Assembly (NCBI GenBank): GCA_043821445.1 | Contig: JBDRCT010000036.1 | Coordinates: 25,879-89,878, forward strand | DNA from: Candidatus Omnitrophota bacterium | Lineage (GTDB): Bacteria; Omnitrophota; Omnitrophia; Omnitrophales; Aquincolibacteriaceae | DNA length: 64,000 nucleotides | Reading direction: 5' to 3' | In this document: positions 1 to 19,167 of the stretch, in pieces | Position numbering within the stretch: position 1 is the stretch's first letter | Layout: each line of letters opens with the position of its first letter | Notes under the pieces: model-generated | Database searches by the model: none | What the model saw: only the letters and a program-made list of their open reading frames with translations | Told to the model about the DNA's origin: nothing | Program-made: the position numbers and the translations under genes

Positions 1-11
1 AAGACTGAACA

Positions 12-1475: not shown

Positions 1476-1533
1476 AAAAGTTCCTTTATGCAAAATAAAA
1501 AAGCAGTTCCCCTCTTTTAAGTGGAACTCATAT

Positions 1534-1746
1534 CTATCTTTTATTCCTTTTCTCTATTTCCTCTAAGCGCATTTTGAAGTCATTCCAATAGTTTATAAAC
1601 TTCATAAGCTCTTCATCATTTGAACGTAATGCTGAGGCAATTGTTTCTTGTTCAATGGTGCCCGTAAGACCAAACACTCTTTTTATTGCCTCGCCTAGTT
1701 CATTCCATGTTTTTACTGCTTGCTTTTTCAAGTCTTCACGCGCCAT
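1534..1746 (-). CDS. Small 70-aa helical protein of unknown function (operon member)
   Basis: ORF MAREDLKKQAVKTWNELGEAIKRVF... lies between the TM/TPR gene and the HEPN-like gene on the same strand. Gaps are 40 to 60 bp. Confidence 0.5.
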   Translation of the reverse strand: MAREDLKKQAVKTWNELGEAIKRVFGLTGTIEQETIASALRSNDEELMKFINYWNDFKMRLEEIEKRNKR

Positions 1747-1808
1747 TTTCCCCTCCTTGTTTTTATATAAAAAAAGCGGTTCCCTCTGGCTCGATTAATA
1801 CTTCTATG

Positions 1809-3242: not shown

Positions 3243-3356
3243 TGGTAGTTACCTCTCATGGGATACAAAAAAGGCGGCTCCCCTATTAAGAGAACCGCCC
3301 TCAATAATTCAAAATTCAAGACGCCCTTCAGGGCTTATTGCTGGGTAGTATAAACC

Positions 3357-4535: not shown

Positions 4536-4689
4536 TTGGGTAATATACCCTCCAATTTTTCTTTGAGCCAGAGAAAGCTACAGCCGATACCCTTTAGCTC
4601 AAAATAAGTGATTTTGCTAAAGACCTTAATCCCCTAGACCCTGCCGTAGGGAAAAGTTTGAGTAGTGGCTTTTGAAGGGACGATTTTTT

Positions 4690-4750
4690 GTTATGGCTAT
4701 GACGGTATTCCCGAACATCATTGAGCCTTAAATCGCTTTTAATGGCCGAA
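4690..4750. repeat. Left copy of imperfect direct repeat (att-like); perfect 20-bp core CTTAAATCGCTTTTAATGGC at 4731..4750
   Basis: TTATGGCTAT...CTTAAATCGCTTTTAATGGC recurs at 12364..12429. The integrase gene ends 170 bp to the right. Confidence 0.55.
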
Positions 4751-4916
4751 TTTTGTTTTCCTTAAAATCGATAGAAAGAAACAGTAGGTAGTATATTGAA
4801 AAGAATTGAGACCTCGCTAAATTCGACCCGTACCCTCTAGGAGATAAAGGGGGCAATCTGACTCTTAGTCAGATGCTCTTTGGGGCTTGAGGGAAAAACG
4901 AAAGGATATAACCCTC

Positions 4917-5993
4917 TTAATTTGAGGCGGTTGCGGTAACGTTTGCCGAGGGAGTATTTGGGGTAACGGCTTCTGGTGACTTATTGGTGACTATATTTTT
5001 CCCGAGTAGGGCTACAGCTTTATTCTTGTGGGACTGGCTGAGATGGGAGTACCTGAGGGTCATTTCTAAGGATTTATGCCCGAGCAGTTCTCGGATAGTA
5101 TTAAGGTCTACGCCACTCATAGCCAAATGAGAAGCGAAAGTATGTCGAAGGTCGTGAAATCGAAAATCTTCTATCTTTGATTTCTTCAGAGCGGTCTGAA
5201 AAGCCTTTCTAAAATTAAACGGTTTCCCGTCCTCTCCGCAAAAGACATAGCTGCTTTCAGAATGCCGTTTAATCGATGCGAGAGCTTTCCTGATATTTAG
5301 ATTAAGCGGACAGTATCGTTTTTCATCGTTTTTTGTCTGCATCAAGGCAATTACTTCGTTCACATAATCAACATCTTCCCACTTCAGACCTTGAATCTCT
5401 CCCTTTCTCATCCCTGTATTAAGAGCAACTTCAACAATCGCTCTTAGCTTCGGAGAACAGTGCCCTAGTAGAATTTGAATCTCTTCCTTGGACAAAAATC
5501 TAAGCCTCCGGTTATCCTCTTTAAAAAATTTCACCTTCTTGACCGGATTTTCGGTCGCTTTCCCCCATTCCACTGCTTTTGAATACATCACCTTTAGACA
5601 AGCGAGCTCCCGGTTAACAGTAGCCTTACAAACGGTTTTAAGCCGTTCTTCCCGGTATCTTTCAATCATCAGCGGAGTAATTTCATAGAGATACCTTTTA
5701 CCAAACGGAGGCATGAGACGATTCAGGATAGTCTTATCTGTTTTCTCCCATGACTTTTTATTTGGTTTAGCATAGAGCTCAAGGTAATCACCCGCGAAGT
5801 CTTTGAATCTTATTTTTTTGAGCTGCTTAATGTCTAGGTGCCTATTTTCAATTACCTCAACTTCCCGTTTCATTAAGACAGCCTGAGCTTGCTTTTTGCT
5901 ACGCCCTATCTTCTGGCGCATTCTTCTTCCTTGAGCGTCGTAGTAATCGATATACCAATCTTCTCCTCTGTTCTTCCTCTGATAAATTCCCAT
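4917..5993 (-). CDS. int: Tyrosine recombinase / phage-type integrase
   Basis: 358 aa. The C-terminus carries the catalytic signature ...HDLRHTFASHLAMSGVDLNTIRELLGHKSLEMTLRYSHL (R..HxxR..Y). N-terminal SAM-like region. Confidence 0.9.
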   Translation of the reverse strand: MGIYQRKNRGEDWYIDYYDAQGRRMRQKIGRSKKQAQAVLMKREVEVIENRHLDIKQLKKIRFKDFAGDYLELYAKPNKKSWEKTDKTILNRLMPPFGKRYLYEITPLMIERYREERLKTVCKATVNRELACLKVMYSKAVEWGKATENPVKKVKFFKEDNRRLRFLSKEEIQILLGHCSPKLRAIVEVALNTGMRKGEIQGLKWEDVDYVNEVIALMQTKNDEKRYCPLNLNIRKALASIKRHSESSYVFCGEDGKPFNFRKAFQTALKKSKIEDFRFHDLRHTFASHLAMSGVDLNTIRELLGHKSLEMTLRYSHLSQSHKNKAVALLGKNIVTNKSPEAVTPNTPSANVTATASN

Positions 5994-6054
5994 TGTCCTT
6001 ATCTCCTTTTCCTAGAATTTGATGCAAAGTAAGCATTATTGTTATTAATTATAG

Positions 6055-6261
6055 TCATATTATACTTGCTGATATTGAATAGTCAATAACTGGATGGATT
6101 CTTTCATCTAGCCATTTTTCGATATCCGTGCGCTTGAACCTGAGAAGCCTTCCGACTTTAACGAAGGGTATTTCTCGCTTGTGAATCCATGAGTAAAGTG
6201 TGTTGGGGCGAATTTTTAAATAATCCGATACTTCCGTAGGGGTCATTAGCTCTGACTGCAC
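6055..6261 (-). CDS. xis: Excisionase-family / AlpA-like HTH DNA-binding protein
   Basis: 68 aa. TPTEVSDYLKIRPNTLYSWIHKREIPFVKVGRLLRFKRTDIEKWL matches the excisionase-family HTH pattern. It lies directly upstream of int. Confidence 0.7.
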   Translation of the reverse strand: MQSELMTPTEVSDYLKIRPNTLYSWIHKREIPFVKVGRLLRFKRTDIEKWLDERIHPVIDYSISASII

Positions 6262-6439
6262 TGTTCGTTGTTATCCTTTCTGATAATCATTTGGCGCCTA
6301 TAAGGCTTGGTATAATCTATAAAGACTTCATTTTCTGAAGAATGTAAGAATAACCGGCCTAGGCTACGAGTATTCAAAAACTGAAGCGTAAGGGGTCCTC
6401 TGATGGCACTTGACGCTTTATTTATTGACGAATGACACT

Positions 6440-6781
6440 TCATAACTTGAACCTAGAAATTGCATTGTCGTACCTCCCAGTAAGTTTGTAATAAGTGGTA
6501 AATCTATACTTACCTCCAACCGTCCGGCTTCTTTCAATCCACTCTTTCTGTTCCAGCCCCTTAAAAGCTTTGGCAATAGTCGCAGAGGCCATAATGTCTT
6601 CCATCTCACTGTAGTGGAGGCAAATATCGCCGTTATTGGCCCCGTTGAATTTATACTTAAGATGGATATATAAAATTTTCTCGGAAGAAGTAAGTCCGCT
6701 CCTCCACGCTGGGTTTTTTAAAAGTTCACGCTCTAAAGCCACAAAAGGTTTAAATTGATTTTTCCTTTTATTTGCTCCCAT
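6440..6781 (-). CDS. Hypothetical 113-aa protein of the integrative element
   Basis: Clean minus-strand ORF between xis and the iteron-like repeats. No recognisable motif. Confidence 0.4.
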   Translation of the reverse strand: MGANKRKNQFKPFVALERELLKNPAWRSGLTSSEKILYIHLKYKFNGANNGDICLHYSEMEDIMASATIAKAFKGLEQKEWIERSRTVGGKYRFTTYYKLTGRYDNAISRFKL

Positions 6782-7077
6782 TTTTATCTCTTTTCAGATT
6801 TATGTATCTTTACGCTCCCGTTTGAATTTTTAGCATTGTTAATACCGTTCGTCCTTTAACGGATTTGAGCCCTTGTAATAGCCCAGGATTACAACAATCC
6901 TCTGGGCAAGGGTTAGGCTATTTTTTTTAAAGAAGCCGAGCCGTTTGAAAATGAGGACAAACCAAAATCTTCATGGCAGCGTGTTGTTTGCAAACGCAAG
7001 CGCATTGCTGGCACTTAGGATTAACCTTATTAGGTTTGCCCTTATAAAATCGGATATACTCCTTTTTCCCCATACGT

Positions 7078-7215
7078 TATGACCTCCTCTCCTAACCTTG
7101 TTAAGTATCAAAAAGGGGTGACAAGACTCCCCTTATGAGAAAAGAGATAGCACCTCTCCTACTAAGGATAAGTGTCAAAGAGGTATGACAAGAAATGAGG
7201 GGAAAAGAAAAAAGA
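7078..7215. repeat. Two ~45-bp imperfect direct repeats (iteron-like)
   Basis: CCTCTCCTAaccttgtTAAGTaTCAAAaAGGgGTGACAAGA and CCTCTCCTActaaggaTAAGTgTCAAAgAGGtATGACAAGA are adjacent. They lie between the 385-aa and 113-aa genes. Confidence 0.5.
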
Positions 7216-7237
7216 GAGAGGGAAAAGGTTGTTGAAC

Positions 7238-8395
7238 TTATTTTTTCTTAAAAAAATTAACGCAAGTGAGGGCTTGCTTCGCAGAGTAGACGCATTTCGA
7301 ATTTACTAGTTCCGGCTTAGGGATATTTCCTTTATGCGAGTGTCTAATAAGCGTTCTCTCTGAAACTTTTAATTTTTCAGCTAACTTCTCACGGCTTACA
7401 AAATTTTTGGGTGGTTCTCGTCTTACTCTTTGTCTTACTAGTTCTAGCAAAGGTGCATAGTCACAAGGTCTGTAAATTCTACAATACCTTCTTCCTTTTA
7501 GCTCCCATTCGGATTTGTAAATACCATTTATGTCCAAATTTCTAAGTGTCTGGGGAGAACAATGAACATAAGCAGCCATTTGCTTAACCAATATTTCTTG
7601 ATTCTCATCAGGAAAGTGCGAAATTGGCATGGGAGCAATCGCTCGTCTGTTTTTTTGTTGTATTTTTCCTCTTTCATTGTTCACAATTTCGTAGCAATCA
7701 CTCTCTGATGGTTTTCTCTCAAAAGCATTTCTTAGAGAATGCGCTTTTCGCCGAAGAAGCCCTATAATCCATTCCATAGCTCTAAAACGTTTGTTCTCCG
7801 AAATTTTTTTACATGCTTCCAAGATTACAGAATAAACTTCGCCTTCAGTAAAAACCTGATAATTCTTTTTTATAAGGGGAGTTACACCCCTATCAAGCTT
7901 TTCACGGATTCTTTTTATTGCGCATTCATCTTTCTTACTCGCGCGAAGAACCAAATCATAGTCTAAAGAAACTAAATCCTTCGCTAACTTAACAGCGCCT
8001 TCACAAAATTGTTTTAATCGCTTTTCAAAGTTTGCGTTTTGGGTAATGACATATTTGGAAAACGGATGCATCTTTCCGTTTTTAATAGACTTTTGCCTGT
8101 TAAAAAGGCTGGCTATGGTTTGGCGTCGCATTTCCGCAAATCTGAGCCTTCTTAACTTGGTTTTTACTAGAGCCTTTATTAATGATTTTTTCTTTCCTTC
8201 TTTCGATATATAAAATTTTAACCATGCGCACTTTTTTCTTAATCTATTTTCTTCTTCTATGATTGAATTTAATGCATTCTTCTGAGCTTGCCCCGATAGG
8301 AAGTAATCGCTTGCTTCTTTGAAGTGTTTATCTTTTTTGTAGGCATCGAATAGACTTTTGGTGCTTTTATCCATATTACCTCTAATTTTGGACAA
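7238..8395 (-). CDS. Hypothetical 385-aa basic protein with C-terminal HTH-like segment; possible replication/regulatory protein of the element
   Basis: K/R-rich ORF. The C-terminal REKLAEKLKVSERTLIRHSHKGNIP resembles an HTH. It is adjacent to the iteron-like repeats. Confidence 0.4.
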   Translation of the reverse strand: MSKIRGNMDKSTKSLFDAYKKDKHFKEASDYFLSGQAQKNALNSIIEEENRLRKKCAWLKFYISKEGKKKSLIKALVKTKLRRLRFAEMRRQTIASLFNRQKSIKNGKMHPFSKYVITQNANFEKRLKQFCEGAVKLAKDLVSLDYDLVLRASKKDECAIKRIREKLDRGVTPLIKKNYQVFTEGEVYSVILEACKKISENKRFRAMEWIIGLLRRKAHSLRNAFERKPSESDCYEIVNNERGKIQQKNRRAIAPMPISHFPDENQEILVKQMAAYVHCSPQTLRNLDINGIYKSEWELKGRRYCRIYRPCDYAPLLELVRQRVRREPPKNFVSREKLAEKLKVSERTLIRHSHKGNIPKPELVNSKCVYSAKQALTCVNFFKKK

Positions 8396-8561
8396 TTATA
8401 GCAAGGAACGACTGGAAGTACCGTCTCAAAAGAGGCTAGCGTTGATATTTACGAGGGGATATAGAGAAAGGGAAATATTTAACTTCGGAAAAAAAGGATT
8501 AATTTTTAACCGTAGAGTTATCAAAATTCGACCGTCTTCTCATCGATATTTAACCGAAAGG

Positions 8562-8813
8562 CTACCGAGATAACGCGCCGGAGAGAAATAACCAAATTCC
8601 ATATACTATAATTGAAAGCACTAAGCCAATTATGCTAGTAATTAAACCACCTGTTGCGATACCATTAGGAAATTTTTTTATTTGCTTCGTCGAAAAAACA
8701 ATCCCCGAAACGCCAATTGCGATACCTACTAAACCGATTAATGGCCCAATGATAATGCTTAAAATTCCTAGCACCAAGCCTGCTATCCCGAAACCATTTT
8801 GATTTTTCTTCAC
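8562..8813 (-). CDS. Small polytopic membrane protein (83 aa)
   Basis: Gly/Ile-rich hydrophobic helices (GIAGLVLGILSIIIGPLIGLVGIAIG...). Confidence 0.45.
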   Translation of the reverse strand: MKKNQNGFGIAGLVLGILSIIIGPLIGLVGIAIGVSGIVFSTKQIKKFPNGIATGGLITSIIGLVLSIIVYGIWLFLSGALSR

Positions 8814-8977
8814 GCGATTTTTCCTCCCAACTCCCAGGACAGGAGTCCAACCACAGCTAAAATTATGACTGGCGATATCAAGGCCATATCCATCATTTTA
8901 ATTTGCTTCGTTAAAGATTTTTCCTTCGGAATATTTTGAATTTCTTCGGCACAATACGGACATTTTTTTGTCCCCAT
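8810..8977 (-). CDS. Small zinc-ribbon plus single-TM protein
   Basis: MGTKKCPYCAEEIQ..., then a hydrophobic helix. GGGAG RBS upstream of the ATG at 8977. Confidence 0.4.
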   Translation of the reverse strand: MGTKKCPYCAEEIQNIPKEKSLTKQIKMMDMALISPVIILAVVGLLSWELGGKIA

Positions 8978-9002
8978 AGTTTTTCTCCCTTTTTTCTTAT
9001 TT

Positions 9003-9524
9003 TTAAACCTGATGCCGCTCTGAGTGCCGCTGATGTTTGTTCCAGTTATCACGGTATTTTTTTGCTAAGATTTTATCTTGAACCACCAAAAGATTTTCCG
9101 CATTTTTGTCTTCTGCTGTGTTGGTGAAGTTGAAAGACCCTGTTATCACAATAACTTCGTCAATAATCATAACTTTGTTGTGTGCTATCGAGTGTTTGCT
9201 ATCTATGCTTACAGGCACCCCAGTTTCTATCAATAAATTTAGTTTGCTTCCCTTAGCGTGTTTTTGACTTTTGTCGAGTAAAATTTTTACTCTCACACCC
9301 CTTTTGTGGGCATTTACAAGAGCCTCTGCTATCGGTTGCGATGTGAAAGAATATGCCTGAACAAGAATTGAGGTTTGGGCTTGGTCTATAGCGTCAACAA
9401 TAGCTTGGGTACAACCGCCTTTAGGAGAAAAGTATGCGTGAGGAACTGCATCAACAGCAGGAAGAAACGGAAAAAAATGGCTGCTTAGTAATAGTAGAAC
9501 AAGAACTGTTTTTTTAATTTTCAT
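9003..9524 (-). CDS. Secreted phospholipase-D-superfamily endonuclease (Nuc-like)
   Basis: Signal peptide MKIKKTVLVLLLLSS. PLD HKD motif HNKVMIID (H-x-K-x4-D) followed by GSFNFT. Size (173 aa) is typical of Nuc. Confidence 0.75.
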   Translation of the reverse strand: MKIKKTVLVLLLLSSHFFPFLPAVDAVPHAYFSPKGGCTQAIVDAIDQAQTSILVQAYSFTSQPIAEALVNAHKRGVRVKILLDKSQKHAKGSKLNLLIETGVPVSIDSKHSIAHNKVMIIDEVIVITGSFNFTNTAEDKNAENLLVVQDKILAKKYRDNWNKHQRHSERHQV

Positions 9525-9538
9525 GCTGCAGCTTATTG

Positions 9539-10324
9539 CTATTTTTGAGGTTGAGCCGTATAAATAAAGCCTTCGCTGTCGTAAGCCTTTAGCGTACCGT
9601 CCTCAGCAATTATCACATAGTCGCCGAATGAATTATTGGGATTTGCATACAGGCGTTCTTCACCCGAAATATTTTTGACAAACAGCTCTTTTATGTCGCC
9701 ACTCCCATCTCGAAATTTTCTCTCTCTAATATATTTCCCACCTTTTTTTCGAATAATAACTCTATGCGCGAGAGAGGGGGCCCACTCGTCAAACCATCTG
9801 CCAACCAAGATGCCATTCTCGTTCTCTAATGGAGGCACATCGTCTTTGGCGGCGGGAGAATCATACTTATCAGCCCATTGAACCTTGGTCTCATAACCGC
9901 TTCTGTCATTTGAAGCCGCTATGTCTGCGGTTACTGCACATTGACTACCAGGATTGCCCGCTGGACACCAAAGCACCATTGCGACATTAAAAGAACCCAC
10001 GGCTTCAGGGTCTGTATCGTAAACAAGCATATGAATTCGGTCTATTTCACTATCTTTGTTTCTAATGTCTAGGATTGCTGCATCTATTATTTTTTTATAT
10101 TGTTCTTTGGTTAAATCAGGTTTGACGGTGATACTGCATCCCATTGTTTTGATTTTAGGTAGCGAAGCTAGTTCAGTTAAAGTATAGGAAGAGGCTGGTC
10201 TGCTCAACGCCGAAATGCTACTTTCATTGTTTGACTTAATTTGATAGTCCGCCTCTGCAAAACAAGGTGAGCTGAGAGCGCTGAGGACTGCGATGGCGAG
10301 TAATACCACTATCATCTTCTTCAT
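9539..10324 (-). CDS. Secreted protein, paralogue A (shared C-terminal ~90-aa domain)
   Basis: Signal peptide. C-terminal GRWFDEWAPSLAHRVIIRK...GEERLYANPNNSFGDYVIIAEDGTLKAYDSEGFIYTAQP aligns with the C-terminus of the next gene. Confidence 0.55.
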   Translation of the reverse strand: MKKMIVVLLAIAVLSALSSPCFAEADYQIKSNNESSISALSRPASSYTLTELASLPKIKTMGCSITVKPDLTKEQYKKIIDAAILDIRNKDSEIDRIHMLVYDTDPEAVGSFNVAMVLWCPAGNPGSQCAVTADIAASNDRSGYETKVQWADKYDSPAAKDDVPPLENENGILVGRWFDEWAPSLAHRVIIRKKGGKYIRERKFRDGSGDIKELFVKNISGEERLYANPNNSFGDYVIIAEDGTLKAYDSEGFIYTAQPQK

Positions 10325-10358
10325 GGTGAACCCCCTAAGTTAGAAAGACAAGACGACC

Positions 10359-11300
10359 TCAATTAATCAAAAATGGAGGTTGTTCTTTTCGTGGTTCGTT
10401 CCTATAGAGGAAACCTTCCTTGTCATAATAGTTGAGCCAACCATCCTTGGCGATAACCATATAGGCGCCTGAAGAATTCCCAGGTTTGTCGGTTAGCCGT
10501 TCCTCACCAGCAACACGTGTAACCGAAAGCTTTTCTTCGCTGCTGTTTCCTTCCTCGTATATTTTTTTTATAAAATATTCTTCCCCACTCTTTCGAATCA
10601 CAACAATGTGAAAAGGGATAGACCAGACATTAAACCATCTTCCCAACACAACCCCACTGTTATAATCAGATGACTTATCGAGATTGCTTTCGGTGTAAAG
10701 TTCGGATTGTTTAGGTTTCATAATCGCATCTAGGGATAAAATCTCACCACATTGTTTCAAGGCATCATTTAAAAAATCGAGACGAATGTCCATTTGCGGA
10801 TTTTTTCCTTTCAACAAATCCCCATAGTCGAAACGTAAATTAAATAAATAAGACAAGGCGACTAACATTTGCCGCTTTGCTTCAGCGCTTTCTGGACACG
10901 TCGTAGAAACCGATTGGGTTTTTTGTTTTAGGGCTTCGAGTTGTTTTGACCAATTAGCTGACCAGCCACTCCACGGCAGCTTTTGAAATTCTTCCGCTGC
11001 CTTTAAATCATCACCTTTGAGAGCGTAAGCTAAGCTTATAGAGGTATCTTCATGGTTGGGGTTATAATTTTGTTTTTTAAACTCCTGATATTTATTTATT
11101 AACTCTCCATGCATTTCCTCGGTTTGCTTTAAAAGGATTGTTAGCTCATTCAGTTCCGAATGTTTGACTATATATTCATTTTTTATACGGGACGTGCCGT
11201 TTTCTTTTACAATTACTGTGGTTGCATCACAAGGAAACGGTAGTATCAAAATCAGCAAAAGAGAGAATAGGGCTTTAATTATCGAAAGATGTTTTCTCAT
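10359..11300 (-). CDS. Secreted protein, paralogue B (shared C-terminal ~90-aa domain)
   Basis: Signal peptide. C-terminal GRWFNVWSIPFHIVVIRK...GEERLTDKPGNSSGAYMVIAKDGWLNYYDKEGFLYRNEP. Confidence 0.55.
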   Translation of the reverse strand: MRKHLSIIKALFSLLLILILPFPCDATTVIVKENGTSRIKNEYIVKHSELNELTILLKQTEEMHGELINKYQEFKKQNYNPNHEDTSISLAYALKGDDLKAAEEFQKLPWSGWSANWSKQLEALKQKTQSVSTTCPESAEAKRQMLVALSYLFNLRFDYGDLLKGKNPQMDIRLDFLNDALKQCGEILSLDAIMKPKQSELYTESNLDKSSDYNSGVVLGRWFNVWSIPFHIVVIRKSGEEYFIKKIYEEGNSSEEKLSVTRVAGEERLTDKPGNSSGAYMVIAKDGWLNYYDKEGFLYRNEPRKEQPPFLIN

Positions 11301-11400
11301 AAATCCCCTTTACGCTTTGTAGACTATCGTCTTCCGCAGAAGCTTTAGTTTGAATAAAAAGCAGACAGAAAAAACAGCTTTTATTGCGTGAGAATGTTAA

Positions 11401-11622
11401 TCAGCGATTAAGATATGCTTGGTAAGCGCCATCAATGAGAAATTGCTCAGGCGTACCAGTGGCCCTAGACTTGTTGGCGATACTAGATTTAATTTCAGAG
11501 GGAGTTTTGCCAATCACGGAGGCGATGTAGTTTATTTTTTCCTCATTGCTTTCGGCATAGGCTTGAACTATAGGGCACGTCAAAAAACATATTAAGAGAA
11601 GTATAGCTATACGCAGATTCAT
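11401..11622 (-). CDS. Small secreted protein (73 aa)
   Basis: Signal-peptide-like N-terminus. Confidence 0.4.
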   Translation of the reverse strand: MNLRIAILLLICFLTCPIVQAYAESNEEKINYIASVIGKTPSEIKSSIANKSRATGTPEQFLIDGAYQAYLNR

Positions 11623-11660
11623 TGTGGCTGTCCTTCGTGGGTTTATCGTTAGTATATTTT

Positions 11661-11957
11661 TTAGTTCGTATCGCTAACTTCAAATAGACCGTACATTCTG
11701 CTGATGCTCATTGATAAGACGTTTGAATCGCTGGAATCATAGAAACTATTAAAAGCACCGTAATAAAAATTCCAATCATGCTTACCAATGCTAGCTAAAT
11801 TTTGACAAATATTGACTTTGGCTTCATAGTTCGCTTTTTGCCAAGCATAGCCATCATCAGTCATGGTTAAGCTGTCAGTAGCAAGAGCCACTGAGCACAC
11901 CGTCAGGAAAAGAAGAGTAAGAACGGTTATTTTCTCCTGGCTCATATTTCCTCCCAT
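11661..11957 (-). CDS. Small secreted protein (98 aa)
   Basis: Signal-peptide-like N-terminus. Confidence 0.4.
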   Translation of the reverse strand: MGGNMSQEKITVLTLLFLTVCSVALATDSLTMTDDGYAWQKANYEAKVNICQNLASIGKHDWNFYYGAFNSFYDSSDSNVLSMSISRMYGLFEVSDTN

Positions 11958-12029
11958 TTTGTAGACTATCGTCTGTAGAGTTATAGTCTACATTTAGCAA
12001 TCATATGCCTCAAGGATATTCTGGGGTAT

Positions 12030-12251
12030 ATGCAAACCATACAAAAAGCTTTCGGGTTAGCCGTCAGGAAATACCGCTATGGGCTAGGTTTGTCTCAAGA
12101 GGAATTTGCTGAAAAGGCGGGGATTCATAGAACCTATGTCTCGGATATTGAACTGGGCAAGGTCTCTATCGGGCTAAGCGTGGCTCAAAAGCTAGCTTCG
12201 GTATTTGGTTTGAAACTGAGCGAATTAATCAAAAAAGCCGAGAAATATTAG
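12030..12251 (+). CDS. XRE-family HTH transcriptional regulator
   Basis: GLSQEEFAEKAGIHRTYVSDIELGK is a classic Cro/C1-type HTH. Confidence 0.75.
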   Translation: MQTIQKAFGLAVRKYRYGLGLSQEEFAEKAGIHRTYVSDIELGKVSIGLSVAQKLASVFGLKLSELIKKAEKY

Positions 12252-12363
12252 TTTCCCGCTTTCACCTTCCTTTAAATCTGCTAAAGAATTAAAAACCTGT
12301 CAAATCGATTTTTCCCCCTGGGGGAATTTAGCTAAAAAGGGCTATTTTTGACATTACAGCTCT

Positions 12364-12429
12364 TCTTTTTCTTTATGGCTATCACCCCTATTAGGAAGGA
12401 ACCCAGGGGCTTAAATCGCTTTTAATGGC
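12364..12429. repeat. Right copy of imperfect direct repeat (att-like); core CTTAAATCGCTTTTAATGGC at 12410..12429
   Basis: Shares TTATGGCTAT and a perfect 20-bp core with 4690..4750. Confidence 0.55.
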
Positions 12430-12539
12430 TTGTTTTTCTTCGAAGGGTATATAGCACAGTTATTTGCGAGCAGATACATTGGCAAGAATTGCGAAAGCTT
12501 TAAAGATACCTGCTGGAAAATTGCTTGTCCTTTAATCTG

Positions 12540-13121
12540 TTAGACCTGATTAATCGCTTCCCCGCTCATTGCTTTGCGCGCAGGCTTATCGATATTATTT
12601 TCTTGTCCGCTGATTGAGGGAATCCATATTGGAAATTTATACAGCAAGCTAAGTCTTTTTTGTTCCAGAGCCGCCAGCGATACCTGCTCAGTAGCGATTC
12701 TCATATCAATCATTACTTTAATAAGACCCCCGCTATATTCCGCACTTTCTTTTTGAGAATCAGAAATACTCCCCTTAGCCTTAGCTATTTCTTCCTCCAA
12801 TCGCTTGATTTCTTTTGTTGAATCAACAGCTTCATCAATCGCTTCCCCATTTACCGAGTAGCTAATTTTTATGAACTTATTAATTCCCTGCCTTTTTTGC
12901 TCTAACATGGCTAGTGTATTTTTATAAATTTGCTCTCTAACTGTTAATAAATCTAGGACTAGTCCTCCAGAATAGTTTTGCTTCTCTTTTTGAAGTTCAG
13001 CTACCTGGGCGTTAAGACTTGTGATTTCTGAATCTATTTTTTTGGTATCGATTGGTTGGGCGCAACTCGTCAGCATGAGCGATAGAAGAAAAAGTATCCC
13101 CCCTCTTTTCGGGCTTTTCAT
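12540..13121 (-). CDS. Lipoprotein with coiled-coil segments
   Basis: Lipobox LTSCAQP after the signal peptide. Heptad-like repeats. Confidence 0.5.
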   Translation of the reverse strand: MKSPKRGGILFLLSLMLTSCAQPIDTKKIDSEITSLNAQVAELQKEKQNYSGGLVLDLLTVREQIYKNTLAMLEQKRQGINKFIKISYSVNGEAIDEAVDSTKEIKRLEEEIAKAKGSISDSQKESAEYSGGLIKVMIDMRIATEQVSLAALEQKRLSLLYKFPIWIPSISGQENNIDKPARKAMSGEAINQV

Positions 13122-13129
13122 ATGGCTCC

Positions 13130-13699
13130 TTATAATTGTTTTACTGCTTTTTCTTCATTAAGTTTTTTGGCAATTACTGCCAGCGCCTTGCATTCGTATC
13201 TAATCATCAATCCTAAGGTGAAGTTATCCCCAAAAAGCACTAACTGAATAATGGATTCTGGGGTATCCCACTCCGAAAAATAGGCGCCTTCGCCGGTAGA
13301 AATTGCCGTTGCGTCGTCTATGAATTGATTGTCGCTACCTTTTCTTGCTTTTTGTTTCGGTTCGCCGTATTTCTTTTTTAAGAGACTCTCAAATTCATCG
13401 AACTTTGAAATGTAGGTTTTTTTATTTGTTGTTTTTATTTGTATTAAAACCCCCGTTTGATAAAGCTTTCTTTCGACAAATTGAAAGCCTATTTGAACAT
13501 TTTCACCAGAGATCGTGCTTAAGAAAAACGGGGTCCCATCGCTGTCCGTTTTAAAATCCATATTAGGAAAAGCGGCTTTGACTTGCTCAAGACTCATTCC
13601 CCACTTAGCATTTTGATAGCCCTCTGTAAAATCAGAAGCACTACTGCTGGTGATTGGCATTATTAAAAGAAACATTAGCATTAAGGTTCTTTTCCCCAT
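13130..13699 (-). CDS. Secreted hypothetical protein
   Basis: Signal peptide MGKRTLMLMFLLIMPITSSSAS. Confidence 0.5.
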   Translation of the reverse strand: MGKRTLMLMFLLIMPITSSSASDFTEGYQNAKWGMSLEQVKAAFPNMDFKTDSDGTPFFLSTISGENVQIGFQFVERKLYQTGVLIQIKTTNKKTYISKFDEFESLLKKKYGEPKQKARKGSDNQFIDDATAISTGEGAYFSEWDTPESIIQLVLFGDNFTLGLMIRYECKALAVIAKKLNEEKAVKQL

Positions 13700-13717
13700 T
13701 ATTCTGTCTCCTTATCT

Positions 13718-13912
13718 TTAATCAAGAAACGTTTGAATAACTTCTATTTGTTCCTTAGTCGGTTTTGTCTCACCCAGCTCCAGCCGGGCAATGTAATCCT
13801 GACTGACACCCATTCGTTCAGCAAGCTCAACGATTGTTACTCGCTTTGACTTACGAATATGACGAATCATGTCACCAGGGGTTACGAAATATGGGGCGTC
13901 TTCTTCTGTCAT
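13718..13912 (-). CDS. XRE-family HTH regulator (64 aa)
   Basis: RVTIVELAERMGVSQDYIARLELGE. Confidence 0.65.
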   Translation of the reverse strand: MTEEDAPYFVTPGDMIRHIRKSKRVTIVELAERMGVSQDYIARLELGETKPTKEQIEVIQTFLD

Positions 13913-13927
13913 TGCTTTTTCAATTTC

Positions 13928-14491
13928 CTAAAGTTGGTACGTAGCCTTCACTCTTACTGAGTCTTTAAGATACGTATACCAAACAATAACATATACGCCT
14001 GTTTGAAATAAACTGATGAACGTCGGCTGCAACATGGCCTTATTCGCTTCTTCAGGAAGTCCTCCCATAAATGGTAAAATCGCACCTACCACATTACATC
14101 CTATAGAAAACAACAGATATCTTTTAGCCATTTGAACAGCACCTGCCTTTATTTTCCACAGTCCGACGCCCGCATAAATGCTAAAGGCCATAATAACCAA
14201 GTTAAGGAAAGTAAGTATAACGCAAACGACTAGGAATCTTGGAAACTGGCCAAACAGCTGCGACGTGTTCGAGTATAATCCAGCAATGTCTCGTATTATT
14301 CCAATGGGCGAAAGCATTGTAAGGCTAATACAAAAGAATAACAGCCATCCATCTACTCCCGCGTAAGTTTTGGTTGTTTGCTGAGTCATCGGCGCAATTT
14401 CACCGGTATTTAAATCACTTTTGCATTTCCAACATATAGACAACGCTGGATTGTTTTTTTCTTTACATTTAGGGCATGCTTTAGAGTTCAT
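13928..14491 (-). CDS. Membrane protein with N-terminal zinc ribbon
   Basis: N-terminal zinc ribbon CPKCKEKNNPALSICWKCKSDL, then several TM helices. Confidence 0.55.
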   Translation of the reverse strand: MNSKACPKCKEKNNPALSICWKCKSDLNTGEIAPMTQQTTKTYAGVDGWLLFFCISLTMLSPIGIIRDIAGLYSNTSQLFGQFPRFLVVCVILTFLNLVIMAFSIYAGVGLWKIKAGAVQMAKRYLLFSIGCNVVGAILPFMGGLPEEANKAMLQPTFISLFQTGVYVIVWYTYLKDSVRVKATYQL

Positions 14492-14804
14492 GCTTCTCTC
14501 CTATCTTATTCCGCAGCGTTAACAAATAAATTCCTATTCCCATATCAATTGGAAACCAGATTAATCTAACTAAATAAACTGGAAATAGTGGGTTAAAGAG
14601 AACGGCAATGATAATCAAAGGGATTTTATGCCCCTTAAGGGCTTCATCCTGCCCGAGCTTTATCGCTGCATACACTGTAATGCCGCACACGAGAAGCCGA
14701 AGAAGCGTATAAAAGCCATACGGCCAGATTGGGATGACGGCTAGAAAAAGAATAATAGCCGCTATCAATAAGAGGGATTTTAATTGGTCTTGTAACTGAC
14801 TCAC
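14481..14804 (-). CDS. Small polytopic membrane protein
   Basis: 107 aa, three hydrophobic helices. Confidence 0.45.
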   Translation of the reverse strand: MSQLQDQLKSLLLIAAIILFLAVIPIWPYGFYTLLRLLVCGITVYAAIKLGQDEALKGHKIPLIIIAVLFNPLFPVYLVRLIWFPIDMGIGIYLLTLRNKIGEKHEL

Positions 14805-14816
14805 ATGAGATTCTCT

Positions 14817-15479
14817 TTATCTTGAGGTTGTTTCGTTCGAGTCTAGACCTAACTGCCTTTGAAGTGTGCCTCCACATTTCCAGCAAGACAAAAGGTCTGG
14901 GTTGTTTTTTTCATAACATGACGGGCAGATTCTACTGCCAGCTATGACCTCTCCCGCTGAATCCGCATTTACCGTTGCTCTAATCTCATATTTCTTTTGT
15001 TCAACCGTCTCGTAAATAGATCCTAACCACGCAGCATAAATTCTCATCCCATAGGTAATAATTAATCCCAAAACTATTCCTCCGGCGGCGGCCCATTGCC
15101 TCGCAAATAAAAGTCCAATGCAAGCTATGGGAGATACAGCGGGAAAGTAAAATAGGAGGAATAGAGCAAACCATTTCAAATAAAAAACAACCGTTAAAAA
15201 AGAAAAAAGCCATACCGCTGCCCCGCACGAATAAGAGAGAACCATGGATGTTATCGCCATAGAACTTCTTAGTGGCTGGAAAAAAGACAGTGGCAAAACG
15301 ATGAATAAAAAGACCAGGATAGAAAGGCCTGCGAGCCATGAAACAATCGGGTAAAGAAAAGCAGAAATCGCCGTAAATCCTGCAAACATTGCTCCAAAAA
15401 GAAGCATAAATCCGGCCATTATTGCGAGTCCTAGTAAAACGCTGCCACTTTGTTTTAACATTTCTGTGATGTTAGCCAT
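14817..15479 (-). CDS. Polytopic membrane protein with C-terminal zinc ribbon (paralogous motif to 13928..14491)
   Basis: C-terminal zinc ribbon CPSCYEKNNPDLLSCWKCGGTL, mirroring the N-terminal motif of the gene two positions upstream. Confidence 0.55.
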   Translation of the reverse strand: MANITEMLKQSGSVLLGLAIMAGFMLLFGAMFAGFTAISAFLYPIVSWLAGLSILVFLFIVLPLSFFQPLRSSMAITSMVLSYSCGAAVWLFSFLTVVFYLKWFALFLLFYFPAVSPIACIGLLFARQWAAAGGIVLGLIITYGMRIYAAWLGSIYETVEQKKYEIRATVNADSAGEVIAGSRICPSCYEKNNPDLLSCWKCGGTLQRQLGLDSNETTSR

Positions 15480-15512
15480 GAAAGCTCCTTTGTTCTCTCT
15501 ATTTTTGTTTCT

Positions 15513-15767
15513 CTATGGCTTACAAACCTTGCATGGAATATACCCAGCCTGCATTGCCTCTTCCTTGCTGCTGAATCCAACGAGGTTAGAGGGCTTAATT
15601 CTTTTTGCCCAAACACAAGATGGACGATGGTATTTATTCGATTTACTAGACCCCACGTAAGTCATTTCCTGCTTCTGGGCATAGGTAGTGGGTGTTACTA
15701 CATGGGGAAAAACGAGGATGGAGATTGTGAGAATAACGCTAACGAGAAACGGGCGTAGTAGTTTCAT
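15513..15767 (-). CDS. Small secreted protein with Ada-like Cys4 metal-binding domain
   Basis: Signal peptide. YHRPSCVWAKRI...FSSKEEAMQAGYIPCKVCKP matches the Ada N-terminal zinc-binding pattern (PSC...EA..AGYxPCKxCxP). It overlaps the thermonuclease gene by 29 nt. Confidence 0.5.
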   Translation of the reverse strand: MKLLRPFLVSVILTISILVFPHVVTPTTYAQKQEMTYVGSSKSNKYHRPSCVWAKRIKPSNLVGFSSKEEAMQAGYIPCKVCKP

Positions 15768-16362
15768 TTTCTTTTCTCCTTATTTGCTCCGAAAGTTTCA
15801 GCTTGGCAATGTAATCTAGAACAGACTTTCTTTGCTCTTCAGTGAGTCCCTCATACTCTGCAATCAGTCCTTTAATTTCATCATCTCCAACGGTCATCTT
15901 CCAAAGCCCAAGTTGCTTTTCCCGAGCTTCTTGTTCAAGTTTCCTGAATTCCTCTAGTCGCTTAAAGGGAAATCTCGTATATGCAAACCCATAACCTTGC
16001 TTGATTATTTCGGCATTAAGAAACAAACCGTCTGAGTCTCGATAGACATAAGCAAGGGTGCGACCATACTTGTCTTTCTTCTCCCAATCATATTCCAGTC
16101 GGATTTCTTTTCCTTCCATCAATTTTTTAACAAACTGGTATGCCTCTTCAGCAAAGTACTGAACGGGTTTACTAGGGTGGTGTAACTCCGGAGTATCTAC
16201 GCCTATTAAACGCACTTTTTCACCGTTGGAGAGCTTTATAGTATCGCCGTCAACGCAACGAGCAACAGTAAGAGAATCGGTGGCTGTGGAGATCCTAGAA
16301 GTAAAAAGGGGGCTGCCCAAGATGAGCAGCCCCCAGAATGCTATTCGTTTATTCAGTCTCAT
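15739..16362 (-). CDS. Secreted thermonuclease (staphylococcal nuclease / SNase fold)
   Basis: VDGDTIKL...RLIGVDTPE...YGRTLAYVY...LNAEIIKQGYGFAY are hallmark SNase motifs. N-terminal signal peptide. Confidence 0.8.
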   Translation of the reverse strand: MRLNKRIAFWGLLILGSPLFTSRISTATDSLTVARCVDGDTIKLSNGEKVRLIGVDTPELHHPSKPVQYFAEEAYQFVKKLMEGKEIRLEYDWEKKDKYGRTLAYVYRDSDGLFLNAEIIKQGYGFAYTRFPFKRLEEFRKLEQEAREKQLGLWKMTVGDDEIKGLIAEYEGLTEEQRKSVLDYIAKLKLSEQIRRKENETTTPVSR

Positions 16363-16377
16363 AGAAACAGCTGGTTA

Positions 16378-16593
16378 TTAATACCAAGCTTTCTTGTAAC
16401 CCTTTTGGCCCGTATAAGGGTTCACATTGCCTTGGGTGCTGTAATTGTTCATCTGCGTGCTATCAGGGTTTGAGCGATAATGCGGTGCAACATATGTCCC
16501 ATTCCTGCGAGTGTATCCATTCACGTACCCAGCAAAAGCGGGGGCTTGAAGGAGTGTTAGCAATAACAACACAAAAGCAAATATTTTCTTCAT
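16378..16593 (-). CDS. Small secreted protein (71 aa)
   Basis: Signal peptide MKKIFAFVLLLLTLLQAPAFA. Confidence 0.4.
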   Translation of the reverse strand: MKKIFAFVLLLLTLLQAPAFAGYVNGYTRRNGTYVAPHYRSNPDSTQMNNYSTQGNVNPYTGQKGYKKAWY

Positions 16594-16623
16594 CGTGCAC
16601 CTCTTTGGTTATCTGGTATTTGG

Positions 16624-16935
16624 CTACGAATCGCTTTCGCTATCTTCTGACCAATCATCTTCGTTGCTGTCGTCGGAATAATCATTCAAAGAAACGCTTA
16701 CAATATCACCTCTTGAATTAGTTCCAGAGGCTTCTCCCCCGCTAATATCCCCTCCATAGACGTTCATGTCGCCACCGTTTGGCCAATGAACCTGAGTAAC
16801 CGACCCATCCTCAACTTCGACAGGAACTGTATAACTACCGCTTTCCGTGGTTACCGTTGCATCATATTCGTCGCCATAAGCAAAAGGTGTAAGCAGAAGA
16901 AACGTTGCAAGGAATATAGCTAACAAATCATTCAT
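16624..16935 (-). CDS. Small secreted acidic (D/E/S-rich) protein
   Basis: The preferred start is MNDLLAIFLATFLLLTPFAYG, followed by an acidic tail. Confidence 0.4.
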   Translation of the reverse strand: MNDLLAIFLATFLLLTPFAYGDEYDATVTTESGSYTVPVEVEDGSVTQVHWPNGGDMNVYGGDISGGEASGTNSRGDIVSVSLNDYSDDSNEDDWSEDSESDS

Positions 16936-17240
16936 CGTTATCAATGGCAATGCCTTTCTCCATAAGGGACACCCCACTTCTCGCAATTGGTGCGACAGTA
17001 ATGACAGCCATCTGAAGCAGTGCGTCCTGGGTGGGCAAAAACTACTACTTGGGCGAGACAAAGCAACAGTAAAGTGAGGGCGAGTATCTTCTTCATGGCG
17101 AGCCTCCCTTTGTAGGCGGGTAGTATAAACCTAATTAATATGGCTGACTAGACGAGTTTCCTTGGACAAATCCTCTGTCTGGTGTCTATATGGTGACTAA
17201 AATAGGTCCAAATTAATCAAAATACAGCAAACTACTTACA

Positions 17241-17284
17241 AATAAAAAAATAGCGCAACCCATCTAGTTTGGATAAGTTGCGCT
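17241..17284 (-). terminator. Rho-independent terminator-like hairpin (8-bp stem AGCGCAAC/GTTGCGCT) followed by a U-run on the minus strand
   Basis: Sits immediately 3' of the tRNA-like fragment on the minus strand. Confidence 0.5.
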
Positions 17285-17315
17285 TGTTGTATTTGGAAGA
17301 TTTTTTTAGCGGTTG

Positions 17316-17359
17316 GCGGTTCCGTAGTGTGGTGCTCTATCCAATTGAGCTACGGGCGC
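17316..17359 (-). pseudogene. Truncated tRNA-Arg(ACG)-like 5' half (acceptor 5' strand, D-arm, anticodon loop); no T-arm or 3' acceptor
   Basis: Minus-strand GCGCCCG-TA-GCTCAATTGGATAGAGC-A-CCACA-CTACGGA closely matches canonical tRNA-Arg(ACG) up to the anticodon loop. No downstream GGTTCGAATCC-like T-arm exists. It coincides with the abrupt GC shift. Confidence 0.55.
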
Positions 17360-17538
17360 AAACTACATTAATTTTTCTTTTAATAAAGGCTTGTTTGCGG
17401 CCTGTCCTGATTTCGTTGATTTGTCATGAAAAAATCAGGGCGGGTACTTGAGGGGCGCCATTATACGTATTTTGAGAGGAAAAGCAAAAACAGACTTCTG
17501 CTCAAGACGCCGGAGATATTCGACCGAACGCTGACCGT

Positions 17539-17934
17539 TTATTGCGCTTCCCTCATGCTTTGTTCCATTTTCTGCTGAATGAGTCGGGCCTGAGCGGCCG
17601 CGGCCTGCGCCTGGGCCTGCATTTCCTCTCCCAAGGTCGGGCCGAGCTTTTTTTTGATCGCCTGGGAGGTTTCCCACGACTCATCGCTCATCTGCTTCAC
17701 CGGATTCCATCCCGGGATCCGCTTGAAAAGATTGTCTTCGGGATTAAGGGTCCACCAAGGCTTTCCTTTAAAATCGATCTGCCCCGGGTCGATCCCCATT
17801 TTCATGAGGGCTTGGGCATTATGATCGGGGTTTTTTTGCAGTTTGTCCCAGAGGACCTTGAAGTCGATCCGCAATCCCGCCGCAAAAACCAGGGCCGGGA
17901 TCAGGACGAGCGCCAGCAAAAACCATTTCTTCAT
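17539..17934 (-). CDS. Secreted hypothetical protein (131 aa)
   Basis: Signal peptide MKKWFLLALVLIPALVFA. GC-rich codon usage (host-like). Confidence 0.5.
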   Translation of the reverse strand: MKKWFLLALVLIPALVFAAGLRIDFKVLWDKLQKNPDHNAQALMKMGIDPGQIDFKGKPWWTLNPEDNLFKRIPGWNPVKQMSDESWETSQAIKKKLGPTLGEEMQAQAQAAAAQARLIQQKMEQSMREAQ

Positions 17935-17990
17935 CGGAAGCCTCCTTTGACTTTAAAGTGCCGGCCCTGGGTGCGCCACCTTCATTCGCC

Positions 17991-18554
17991 TTATCTTTTC
18001 TTTTTTTTGCCGCGGGATTTAGAAACAGGTTTTTTGCCGCTTTTCGCGGATTTGGATTGCTTGCCTTTGGACGTGGCGGCCTCCCCCTTGGATTCCCCGC
18101 CGGTGGCGGGTTTTAATGCTCTCAGATGATGCGGCACGACAACATGCGAGGTCAGGTCCTTAGGAACATGGCCGGCTTTCCGGATCGCAAAACATTCCGG
18201 ACAATAGACCGGACGGTCCCCGCTCGGCTTAAAAGGCACCTCACAGCGCTTACAACAATCGGCACAGACCGCCTGGTAAAGAATTCTTTCGCGCTGGCCT
18301 TGGTTCTGCTGAGGACTCTGCTCCTGCCGCGGGACAGACTGCACGTGATAAGACGGCTGCGGGCGCTGAAACTCCTGGACCGCGCGTCTTACCTCGTTCG
18401 GGAAGGCCAGGGTCCGGCCAAGCACTTGATCCGTTTTCCTCTCCAAGTTCTCGAGCCGTTCTACGAACTTCGTCATGATGGTGACGAGGTCCGGTAGTTC
18501 GCTTTTCACCGCCGAAGACCTTTTGGATTTTTTTGCTTTTGCTCGTTTTGCCAT
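17991..18554 (-). CDS. Highly basic protein with CxxCC..C-x9-CxxC zinc-ribbon
   Basis: Start MAKRAKAKK with AAGGAGG RBS. CADCCKRCEVPFKPSGDRPVYCPECF. Lys-rich tails at both ends. Confidence 0.5.
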   Translation of the reverse strand: MAKRAKAKKSKRSSAVKSELPDLVTIMTKFVERLENLERKTDQVLGRTLAFPNEVRRAVQEFQRPQPSYHVQSVPRQEQSPQQNQGQRERILYQAVCADCCKRCEVPFKPSGDRPVYCPECFAIRKAGHVPKDLTSHVVVPHHLRALKPATGGESKGEAATSKGKQSKSAKSGKKPVSKSRGKKKKR

Positions 18555-18772
18555 GAGAAATAACCTCCTTTCCCTAAGTAGGAACGGCGGAGGGGGGGAT
18601 TTGGCTCCTTCCGCTCGCCTCGTAACACGAGGCAAGCTTCTGGTAGGCCACCCGCCCTTGAAACATGACGCCAGTCATGTTTCATTTCAGGGCTCCCTTC
18701 AAATCCCCTTCCCGTTCAAGGACAGCAGCTTCCTCGGCTGCCGCCTTGACCGTCATTGATTAACAAAATAAA

Positions 18773-18867
18773 TGGCGGAGGGGGGGGGATTTGAACCCCC
18801 GGTGACGCTTTAGGCGCCACAGCGGTTTAGCAAACCGCCGCACTAAACCGGGCTATGCGACCCCTCC
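18773..18867 (-). tRNA. tRNA-Ser (anticodon GCU), class II with long variable arm
   Basis: Minus strand GGAGGGG..D-arm..GCGGT-TTGCTAA-ACCGC (anticodon GCT)..long variable arm..GGGGGTTCAAATCCCCC..CCA. Confidence 0.8.
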
Positions 18868-19112
18868 AAAATCTGTTTTCTTCCTTGCCCCGACTTCAAA
18901 AAGTTTTCGCGTTTACGGGCTTCCGTATAGTTTTCAAAGAACTCTTCGAAAAGAAGAGTCTAAGGTTTTCCGGATTTTGTCCATCGTGACCTGCCCGCAT
19001 TATGCTCCGCAACCCTTTTAGCCGAAGAGTTTTCGTGGCTTGAGCCCACGTAATGCTTGCCGGTCTTCTTGCTTTGCAATACATAAACACAGGACATTTT
19101 TTATCTCGCACT

Positions 19113-19167
19113 TCCGCCAGAGGCGGATCCGCCTCTGGCGGAAAACCGAGCTATGCGACCCCTCCAT
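19113..19167 (-). repeat. Perfect palindrome (13-bp arms, 2-nt spacer) fused to a 20-nt duplicate of the tRNA-Ser 5' end
   Basis: CCGCCAGAGGCGG-AT-CCGCCTCTGGCGG at 19113..19140. CCGAGCTATGCGACCCCTCC at 19146..19165 matches the tRNA 5' end at 18848..18867 with 1 mismatch. Confidence 0.6.

Follow-up and report, generated by a model that had tools for sequence, protein, structure and literature searches.

A tRNA-Arg 5′ half at a composition break in an Omnitrophota genome as the probable att site of an island integrated through the tRNA 5′ half

Introduction

Why does an Omnitrophota chromosome change composition abruptly at a tRNA gene of which only the 5′ half is present? Classical tRNA islands bring the 3′ part of the tRNA. 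In the window, the 64,000-nucleotide stretch of DNA analysed here, a first-pass annotation had noticed a tRNA-Arg(ACG) cut off at the anticodon loop, and had suggested that it may be a decayed att junction, rearranged later, or else the seam of a chimeric contig. We find that the junction is very probably the promoter-proximal att site (B-O-P′) of an island integrated via a tyrosine integrase in a tRNA 5′-half mode, and that the boundary is a genuine and fairly ordinary island edge, with assembly error and later rearrangement both unlikely. The features on which this reading draws are collected in Table 1.

Table 1. Features of the window and tRNA genes beside homologues of its integrase. Positions refer to the window unless a locus (L number) is given.
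Feature	Position	Strand	Remarks
AT-rich, composite genomic island	1..17320		runs about 50 nt left of the window
Decayed tRNA-like relic	4815..4893	-	begins ~23 nt past the integrase stop
Tyrosine integrase of the island, MFH1800589.1	4917..5993	-	PF00589 E = 3.5e-38; Int_N E = 1.3e-8
Second arm-type motif copy AGTCACCAATAAGTCACC	4975..4992	-	within the integrase gene 3′ end, putative P arm
XRE-type HTH regulator	12030..12251	+	opposite orientation to integrase, likewise in L016, L025, L026
Tandem arm-type motif AGTCACCATATAGACACC	17181..17198	-	putative integrase arm-binding site, P′ arm, 122 nt from the predicted crossover
Intrinsic-terminator-like hairpin and U-run	17242..17284	-	13-bp stem, 7-nt loop, within the island end
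Orphan tRNA-Arg(ACG) 5′ half	17321..17359	-	standard positions 1-38
Native upstream (putative promoter) flank of the chromosomal tRNA-Arg	17360..17491	-	kept upstream of intact tRNA-Arg in relatives
Chromosomal flank genes	17539..18635	-	lineage-specific 131-aa secreted protein and 214-aa treble-clef zinc-finger protein
tRNA beside integrase homologue	L013		tRNA-Thr
tRNA beside integrase homologue	L016		tRNA-Gln
tRNA beside integrase homologue	L018-L020		tRNA-Ala-CGC
tRNA beside integrase homologue	L021		tRNA-Thr
tRNA beside integrase homologue	L023		tRNA-Ala-GGC
tRNA beside integrase homologue	L025		tRNA-Arg-ACG
tRNA beside integrase homologue	L109-L112		tRNA-Met
tRNA beside integrase homologue	L029		tRNA-Ser

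A tRNA-Arg 5′ half at the composition break

The break that had been placed at ~17.3 kb is borne out. Per kb, GC ranges over 0.34-0.45 to the left of 17 kb and over 0.49-0.57 to its right; in 400-nt windows the rise between 17.2 and 17.4 kb is from 0.42-0.43 to 0.53, and overall GC is 0.39 for positions 1-17320 versus 0.513 for the remaining window. GC3 of open reading frames is 0.29-0.44 in the left part and 0.56-0.75 in the right part, and tetranucleotide profiles likewise set the two parts of the 64-kb window apart. The right side carries a zinc-finger gene, tRNA-Ser genes, cysDN, serS, gyrA, gyrB, dnaN, dnaA and yidC, and is an origin-proximal core region. The zinc-finger gene stands upstream of an intact tRNA-Arg in relatives too, with tblastn protein identities of 82% in L002/L027, 79% in L008 and 49% in L007.

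The orphan half, which reads GCGCCCGTAGCTCAATTGGATAGAGCACCACACTACGGA from 17359 to 17321 on the minus strand, spans the acceptor 5′ strand, the D arm, the anticodon 5′ stem and the whole anticodon loop CTACGGA, and matches intact Omnitrophota tRNA-Arg(ACG) at 100% identity over its first 39 nt (standard positions 1-38). An exact search with the 39-nt half across one genome per species returned 10 loci (L001-L008, L010 and L027; in L006 the match lies at 4325-4364), all from Omnitrophota and all with an intact tRNA-Arg(ACG). In alignment A1 the identity ends exactly past the anticodon loop, where the window continues from CTACGGA into ACCGCC and the tRNA into TGTGG, upholding the earlier proposal of a recombination boundary at this loop. 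A 51-nt string is single-copy in the window and has 0 matches in shuffled sequences. Neither ARAGORN nor Rfam (at gathering thresholds and at E ≤ 10) calls a tRNA at 17321-17359, a silence consistent with a true half; the truncated call stands on re-inspection. The earlier description was accurate and needs only to be refined in orientation: the feature lies on the minus strand and its tRNA 5′ end points to the GC-rich side.

Sequence upstream of the orphan half belongs to the native locus. It matches the upstream flank of intact tRNA-Arg genes with 85% identity over 171 nt in L009, 89% over 88 nt in L004/L005 and 97% over 62 nt in L001; alignment A1 shows this flank in L009, L004, L001 and L010 and a conserved block AAGAAAAATTAATGTnGTTT within it. 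If this flank functions as the native tRNA-Arg promoter, it would now drive the orphan half alone.

The reciprocal junction and empty sites

The far end of the island is represented in an independent assembly, in the last 5 kb of contig JAZDFE010000016.1 (L006), which ends 587 nt into the island. The last 587 nt of L006 are identical to window positions 1-587 (587/587 nt), and an intact tRNA-Arg(ACG) (L006 4289-4364, minus strand) lies 50 nt left of window position 1, on the same strand as the half. The orphan half together with base 17360 (17321-17360) forms a 40/40-nt direct repeat with this gene. The 64-kb window itself contains no tRNA 3′ half at up to 3 mismatches, and a search there for a second copy likewise found none. 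From the 100% identity over 587 nt we infer that the source genome carries the same DNA left of the window, and with it the same intact tRNA, which would then lie on the minus strand ~50 nt away and be preceded by ...CCGCTATACTCTCGCCCTCAT. Sequence upstream of the L006 gene is non-native, with a TATACT box; a scan for sigma-70 consensus promoters called none upstream of this rebuilt tRNA, and the −10-like boxes were seen by eye only.

Eight loci in related genomes (L027, L002, L008, L009, L004, L005, L001 and L010) are empty sites with an intact tRNA-Arg, native flanks and no island; a native terminator follows the tRNA-Arg, and the zinc-finger gene lies upstream where covered. Over ~17 kb, L027 and L002 share 84-86% identity with the window core; both have an uninterrupted tRNA-Arg, relative to which ~19.7 kb is inserted. 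The 40-nt repeat and the empty sites bear out the suggestion of an att junction of a large AT-rich island. The same tRNA is occupied in CAISGE010000002.1 by an 11-kb island whose integrase is 54% identical, with complete tRNA copies at both ends and an island-borne TATAAT box at the distal copy. The same exact junction was not found elsewhere in viral or JGI metagenome contigs, which gave only two chance 20-21-nt matches.

One metagenome-assembled genome holds both L006 (JAZDFE010000016.1, 100% identical to the window) and the empty site L008 (JAZDFE010000017.1, 82-89% identical). Because an empty-site contig and an island-end contig occur in one bin, it is probably a mixed bin or contains a second related lineage.

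Farther downstream in L006 the intact gene is followed by a chimeric tRNA (tRNA#2), an 18-nt 3′ fragment, a tRNA-Met-like 3′ fragment and a 38-nt 3′ half, the last of which runs into the native downstream flank. Because a tandem array of att remnants lies there, we regard this tRNA-Arg as an integration hotspot.

Details of the array are recorded here as separate observations. ARAGORN calls tRNA#2 (L006 4111-4186, some 230-300 nt to the left of window position 1) as tRNA-Arg(ACG). Its 3′ half is identical to the real gene and its 5′ half is divergent and of the L025 tRNA type; the acceptor, D and anticodon stems are mismatched, and tRNA#2 is probably a non-functional recombination product. The displaced tRNA-Arg 3′ fragments and the tRNA-Met-like 3′ fragment (L006 2051-2088, 3966-3983 and about 3780-3830) are leftovers of classical 3′-mode integrations at the same hotspot and represent other remnants of the array.

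A conserved module at the island end

Past the orphan half the island end has a hairpin and U-run, as had been described: the 13-bp stem at 17284-17252 on the minus strand is followed by ATTTTTTTAT and folds with an energy of −19.1 kcal/mol (z = −5.9). Beyond it lies one of only two occurrences in the 64 kb of the tandem motif [AG]G[AT]CACC-N3-8-[AG]G[AT]CACC, which has 0 occurrences in shuffled sequences; the other falls in the integrase gene. The motif recurs at the equivalent place in L026, at the integrase 3′ end in L025 and directly after tRNA#1 in L006. In L025, the closest integrase homologue with context, its position is the same as in the window, some 106 nt ahead of the anticodon loop. 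These tandem motifs are candidate arm-type integrase sites.

In L026 the same module of spacer, hairpin and arm motif comes after an orphan 5′ half of tRNA-Thr. The DNA past the orphan half is collinear between the window and L026 (alignment A3), with the shared order of an A-rich spacer, the hairpin and U-run, and then TTTAG(T/A)CACC..ATAGACACCAGA. The L026 stem differs from that of the window on both strands and still folds with z = −5.05. Hairpin and arm-type repeat therefore constitute a conserved island-end module, and together with the 40/40-nt identity of the repeat this indicates that the junction is intact, not decayed as first thought. Because the island genes are co-oriented with the native tRNA promoter, the predicted terminator probably insulates the island against it.

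A clade of integrases next to tRNA 5′ ends

The island encodes an integrase with matches to tyrosine-recombinase NCBIfam models and PDB structures, the best being recombinases of Xer, P2 and HP1 type, and is a bona fide tyrosine recombinase. We compared it with the nine homologues for which genomic context could be retrieved. In eight of these nine (45-63% identity) an intact co-oriented tRNA lies 0-67 nt past the integrase stop or overlaps it, and in most the tRNA starts 9-24 nt past the stop; in L025 the tRNA overlaps the last 14 nt of the open reading frame. Because the co-oriented tRNA starts just past the integrase stop, the islands of this clade sit on the tRNA 5′ side. The tRNAs concerned are of several identities (Table 1), and the integrase open reading frame is intact in the integrated state in the window, L013, L016, L018-L023, L025 and L109-L112.

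Two of these islands, in L013 (8.2 kb; tRNA-Thr) and L023 (5.6 kb; tRNA-Ala), reproduce the anatomy of the window: the far end of each has an orphan repeat that copies tRNA positions 1-38 exactly, with the same repeat boundary as in the window. The first-pass annotation had held that a 5′-only half cannot arise by simple integration and so implies later rearrangement; islands with orphan 1-38 copies in tRNA-Thr and tRNA-Ala, and integrases upstream of intact tRNAs, overturn this premise, and simple integration does yield a 5′-only half. No far-end orphan half was found in the islands L019/L020, L021 and L111/L112.

The arrangement of integrase then tRNA is missing in more distant relatives (44% identity or less), among which L031 has a convergent tRNA-Pro. 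A single-protein integrase scan of viral contigs gave no match, and an alignment-based scan of viral contigs gave distant relatives only (45% identity or less), with a co-oriented tRNA in the closest of them (L029) alone. Integrase homologues number in the thousands (roughly 6,800 at E ≤ 1e-30), and the named ones are mostly from Omnitrophota with a few from Nitrospirota.

Proposed mechanism and its alternatives

We propose that the island targeted the only tRNA-Arg(ACG) gene of an Omnitrophota genome, close to its origin of replication, and would have entered it by tyrosine-integrase site-specific recombination, with catalysis attributed to the integrase in the window and crossover placed within the anticodon loop, at whose 3′ edge the identity block ends. 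Compared with the textbook case, the polarity would be mirrored. The attP of the element would consist of its own upstream sequence and a copy of the tRNA 5′ half (positions 1-38), and since attP would carry the 5′ half, a complete tRNA would be rebuilt at the far (distal) end from the island 5′ half and the chromosomal 3′ half. The original 5′ half would be left stranded behind the original promoter, where the end module of A-rich spacer, intrinsic terminator and tandem arm-type repeat could halt transcripts from the tRNA promoter before they reach the co-oriented island genes.

A later deletion, the origin favoured by the first-pass annotation, is the alternative that best survives and is nonetheless unlikely. 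It would require a full tRNA copy in attP, complete copies at both island ends and subsequent loss of the promoter-proximal 3′ half, and some observations speak for it: the CAISGE010000002.1 island has complete tRNA-Arg copies at both ends of the same site, the AT-rich region of the window is clearly composite and rearranged, and the locus is an array of tRNA fragments. However, the boundary lies exactly at position 38 in the window, in the tRNA-Thr and tRNA-Ala islands and in the L026 orphan; a random event would not end at the loop edge four times, and in place of an arbitrary endpoint a conserved end module follows the orphan at a conserved distance.

Homologous recombination of the RecA type, in which circular DNA with a tRNA-Arg 5′ fragment is taken up by a single crossover within the 40-nt identity, would leave products of the same sequence as those of an integrase, and the integrase of the window lies 12 kb from the junction and away from the intact tRNA. 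We nevertheless consider it very improbable: 40 nt is a poor RecA substrate, arm-type repeats occur at both predicted arms, the P′ module is conserved beside orphans of different tRNAs, and the clade-wide order of integrase then tRNA with 1-38 repeats points to a dedicated site-specific system.

An assembly chimera, in which the 40-nt tRNA sequence common to both would have bridged an Omnitrophota chromosome and either an AT-rich element or an island from another genome, is hardly credible even though the tRNA-Arg(ACG) sequence is identical across the Omnitrophota clade and therefore a shared repeat in a metagenome, the composition shifts exactly at the junction, JAZDFE01 has both island-end and empty-site contigs and a second copy of the junction is absent from the public collections searched. 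Against it, an independent assembly that matches the island at 587/587 nt contains the reciprocal junction of island start and intact tRNA-Arg, both halves of the native locus are traced (upstream flank: window; downstream flank: L006), the same architecture occurs in long contigs from unrelated samples (L013, 403 kb; L023, 191 kb), the P′ module and arm motifs are conserved, and 40 nt is little for a repeat compared with the k-mers of final assembly. Integration through the tRNA 5′ half remains our preferred reading of the junction.

A composite island interior

The cargo of the island comprises SIR2-like, PLD/DrmC-like nuclease, SNase and Ada-Zn proteins, secreted and membrane proteins, and XRE and other HTH regulators. 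The integrase has no adjoining intact tRNA, unlike its clade; next to it comes a tRNA-like relic and then 4.9 kb of further AT-rich DNA, an integrase-less segment with SIR2-like and other genes that extends from the relic to the intact tRNA. The anticodon arm of the relic, AGAGCATCTGACTAAGAGTCAGA (4880-4858), matches the tRNA-Arg(ACG) beside the L025 integrase at 20/23 positions, a score reached by 0/500 shuffles. The relic represents a different tRNA-Arg sequence type from the orphan half, and the 5′ half of L006 tRNA#2 is of the relic's type. A full tRNA at 4815-4893 was considered and set aside, as ARAGORN and Rfam call none there and the anticodon arm alone is significantly tRNA-Arg-like. 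By its resemblance and position the relic appears to mark the integrase-proximal att site.

Because the relic and the P-arm motif stand beside the integrase and away from the intact tRNA, the 17.4-kb AT-rich stretch is composite and records more than one event. A single simple 17.4-kb island was rejected as a candidate, since both the P-arm motif and the tRNA relic adjoin the integrase at 4.9 kb and not the intact tRNA. The integrase-bearing unit would then have its P and P′ arms at about 4.9 kb and 17.2 kb, the integrase-less 4.9-kb segment would occupy the interval between the relic and the intact tRNA, and the whole would belong to the more extensive tandem array of att remnants at this tRNA-Arg.

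An exact repeat of 20 nt in direct orientation, CTTAAATCGCTTTTAATGGC, is present at 4727-4746 and 12410-12429 and brackets a 7.7-kb module from integrase to XRE regulator, with a 17-nt block 43-44 nt upstream of the repeat copies (4684-4757, 12366-12440). The pair could be the ends of a nested element or a repeated operator; as an integrase att site it fits poorly with the clade rule of an integrase abutting a tRNA.

Relation to known integration systems

Several parts of an Islander-type definition are present at the locus. An integrase lies inside the candidate island (4917-5993, minus strand), an intact tDNA and a same-orientation fragment flank it, the intact end being seen in the independent assembly at 100% over 587 nt, and empty sites exist in related genomes (8 loci). 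The 5′ fragment is upstream, in the tRNA sense, of the intact gene, and the Islander configuration filter accepts a 5′ fragment upstream, or a 3′ fragment downstream, of an intact tDNA (PMC4383910). The displaced fragment is a 5′ half and the window contains no 3′ half, which places the island outside the classical 3′-half class.

With classical anticodon-loop islands and prophages the element shares a tyrosine integrase and att identity that stops at the anticodon loop. Other common points are that one end has an intact tRNA and the opposite end a displaced fragment of the same direction, that the cargo is of foreign composition and that the tRNA is a hotspot where remnants lie in tandem; the solved structures nearest to its integrase include those of HP1 and P2 integrases. 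The Williams 2002 classification is said to include an anticodon-loop sublocation, for example for integrases of HP1 and P22 type. In contrast to the classical islands, the element in the window brings a 5′ and not a 3′ half, the displaced 5′ half stays beside the native promoter, from which the rebuilt tRNA is severed.

A close counterpart in site usage is archaeal. In Thermococcus, pTN3 uses a tRNA gene's 5′ half as attB, 41 bp reaching the anticodon are common to attP and attB, and a full tRNA is rebuilt that is parted from its original promoter (PMC5495485, PMC8371274). The window follows the same logic as this pTN3/TKV4 type with a repeat of near-equal length (38-40 nt versus 41 bp), and identity over the tRNA 5′ half to the anticodon region is found in the window, L013 and L023. 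Unlike the window element, pTN3 resides in an archaeon and has an SSV-type integrase with attP inside its own gene, which is split on integration; the integrase gene of the window stays whole, attP lies just past or slightly overlapping the stop and outside the body of the open reading frame, and the host is bacterial; the likeness drawn here is one of site usage. Among bacteria, islands of Klebsiella pneumoniae clade I.d lie upstream of the arg2 tDNA at a D-loop sublocation that was termed unusual (bioRxiv 10.1101/2020.11.02.365908). These too are bacterial islands on the upstream side of a tRNA-Arg gene, but they use the D-loop instead of the anticodon loop and have gammaproteobacterial hosts, and the likeness is one of site position. 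Because the Islander rule, pTN3 and Klebsiella clade I.d precede it, the 5′-half mechanism class is known but rare (pTN3 and a few bacterial cases), and the window provides a new bacterial member.

The composition break of the window is very probably a genuine island boundary and not a mis-assembly, and the origin-proximal tRNA-Arg is an integration hotspot. Orphan 5′ tRNA halves can be primary integration products, which would be mis-called by pipelines for island mapping or tRNA annotation that expect 3′ fragments or take 5′ halves for decay. From the clade-wide order of integrase then tRNA it seems that bacterial integrases with mirror-image site usage form a group of some size that has been little studied, a regularity at the clade level that is possibly undescribed. 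Such mirror-image islands must supply a promoter for an essential tRNA and may use a terminator against the old promoter. A much stronger proposal can be framed, namely an undescribed large bacterial integrase clade that obligately integrates via the tRNA 5′ half with attP abutting the integrase stop, swaps the tRNA promoter and leaves a terminator-capped, promoter-driven orphan 5′ half made as a stable ~110-130-nt RNA with its own function; we hold this to be doubtful in its entirety. If true, the stable orphan RNA might, for instance, serve as a decoy, regulate in the manner of tRNA halves or mark cells that carry the island.

Further variation in the core region

Several observations concern the GC-rich side of the window. 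The dnaN (GC 0.40, GC3 0.43) and dnaA (GC3 0.48) region at 32076-34660 is far AT-richer than adjoining core genes (GC3 0.56-0.75) and is syntenic with L027 despite its low GC, and two further AT-rich patches (GC about 0.41-0.44) lie in the core at 39000-40000 and 51000-53000. The cysDN-phosphodiesterase block between two tRNA-Ser genes is missing as a whole in L008, L001 and L009, and within 23606-25204 the sulfatase-like gene (23675-25051) beside tRNA-Ser(GGA) is missing in the otherwise collinear L027. Downstream of tRNA-Ser(GCT), at about 18636-18713, is a hairpin element AAACATGAC..GTCATGTTT with similar copies beside tRNA-Ser(TGA) in L002, L010 and L027 and two in L006; it is perhaps a terminator present in several copies, or else a REP-like element. 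Within 18845-19166, a 275-nt insertion (18868-19142) missing in L002 and L027 holds a small GIY-YIG nuclease open reading frame with an in-frame TAG (PF01541, E = 1e-12). It is bounded by a 24-nt direct repeat identical to the first 24 nt of tRNA-Ser(GCT), and has the appearance of another mobile element, inserted by a different mechanism where a tRNA gene has its 5′ end.
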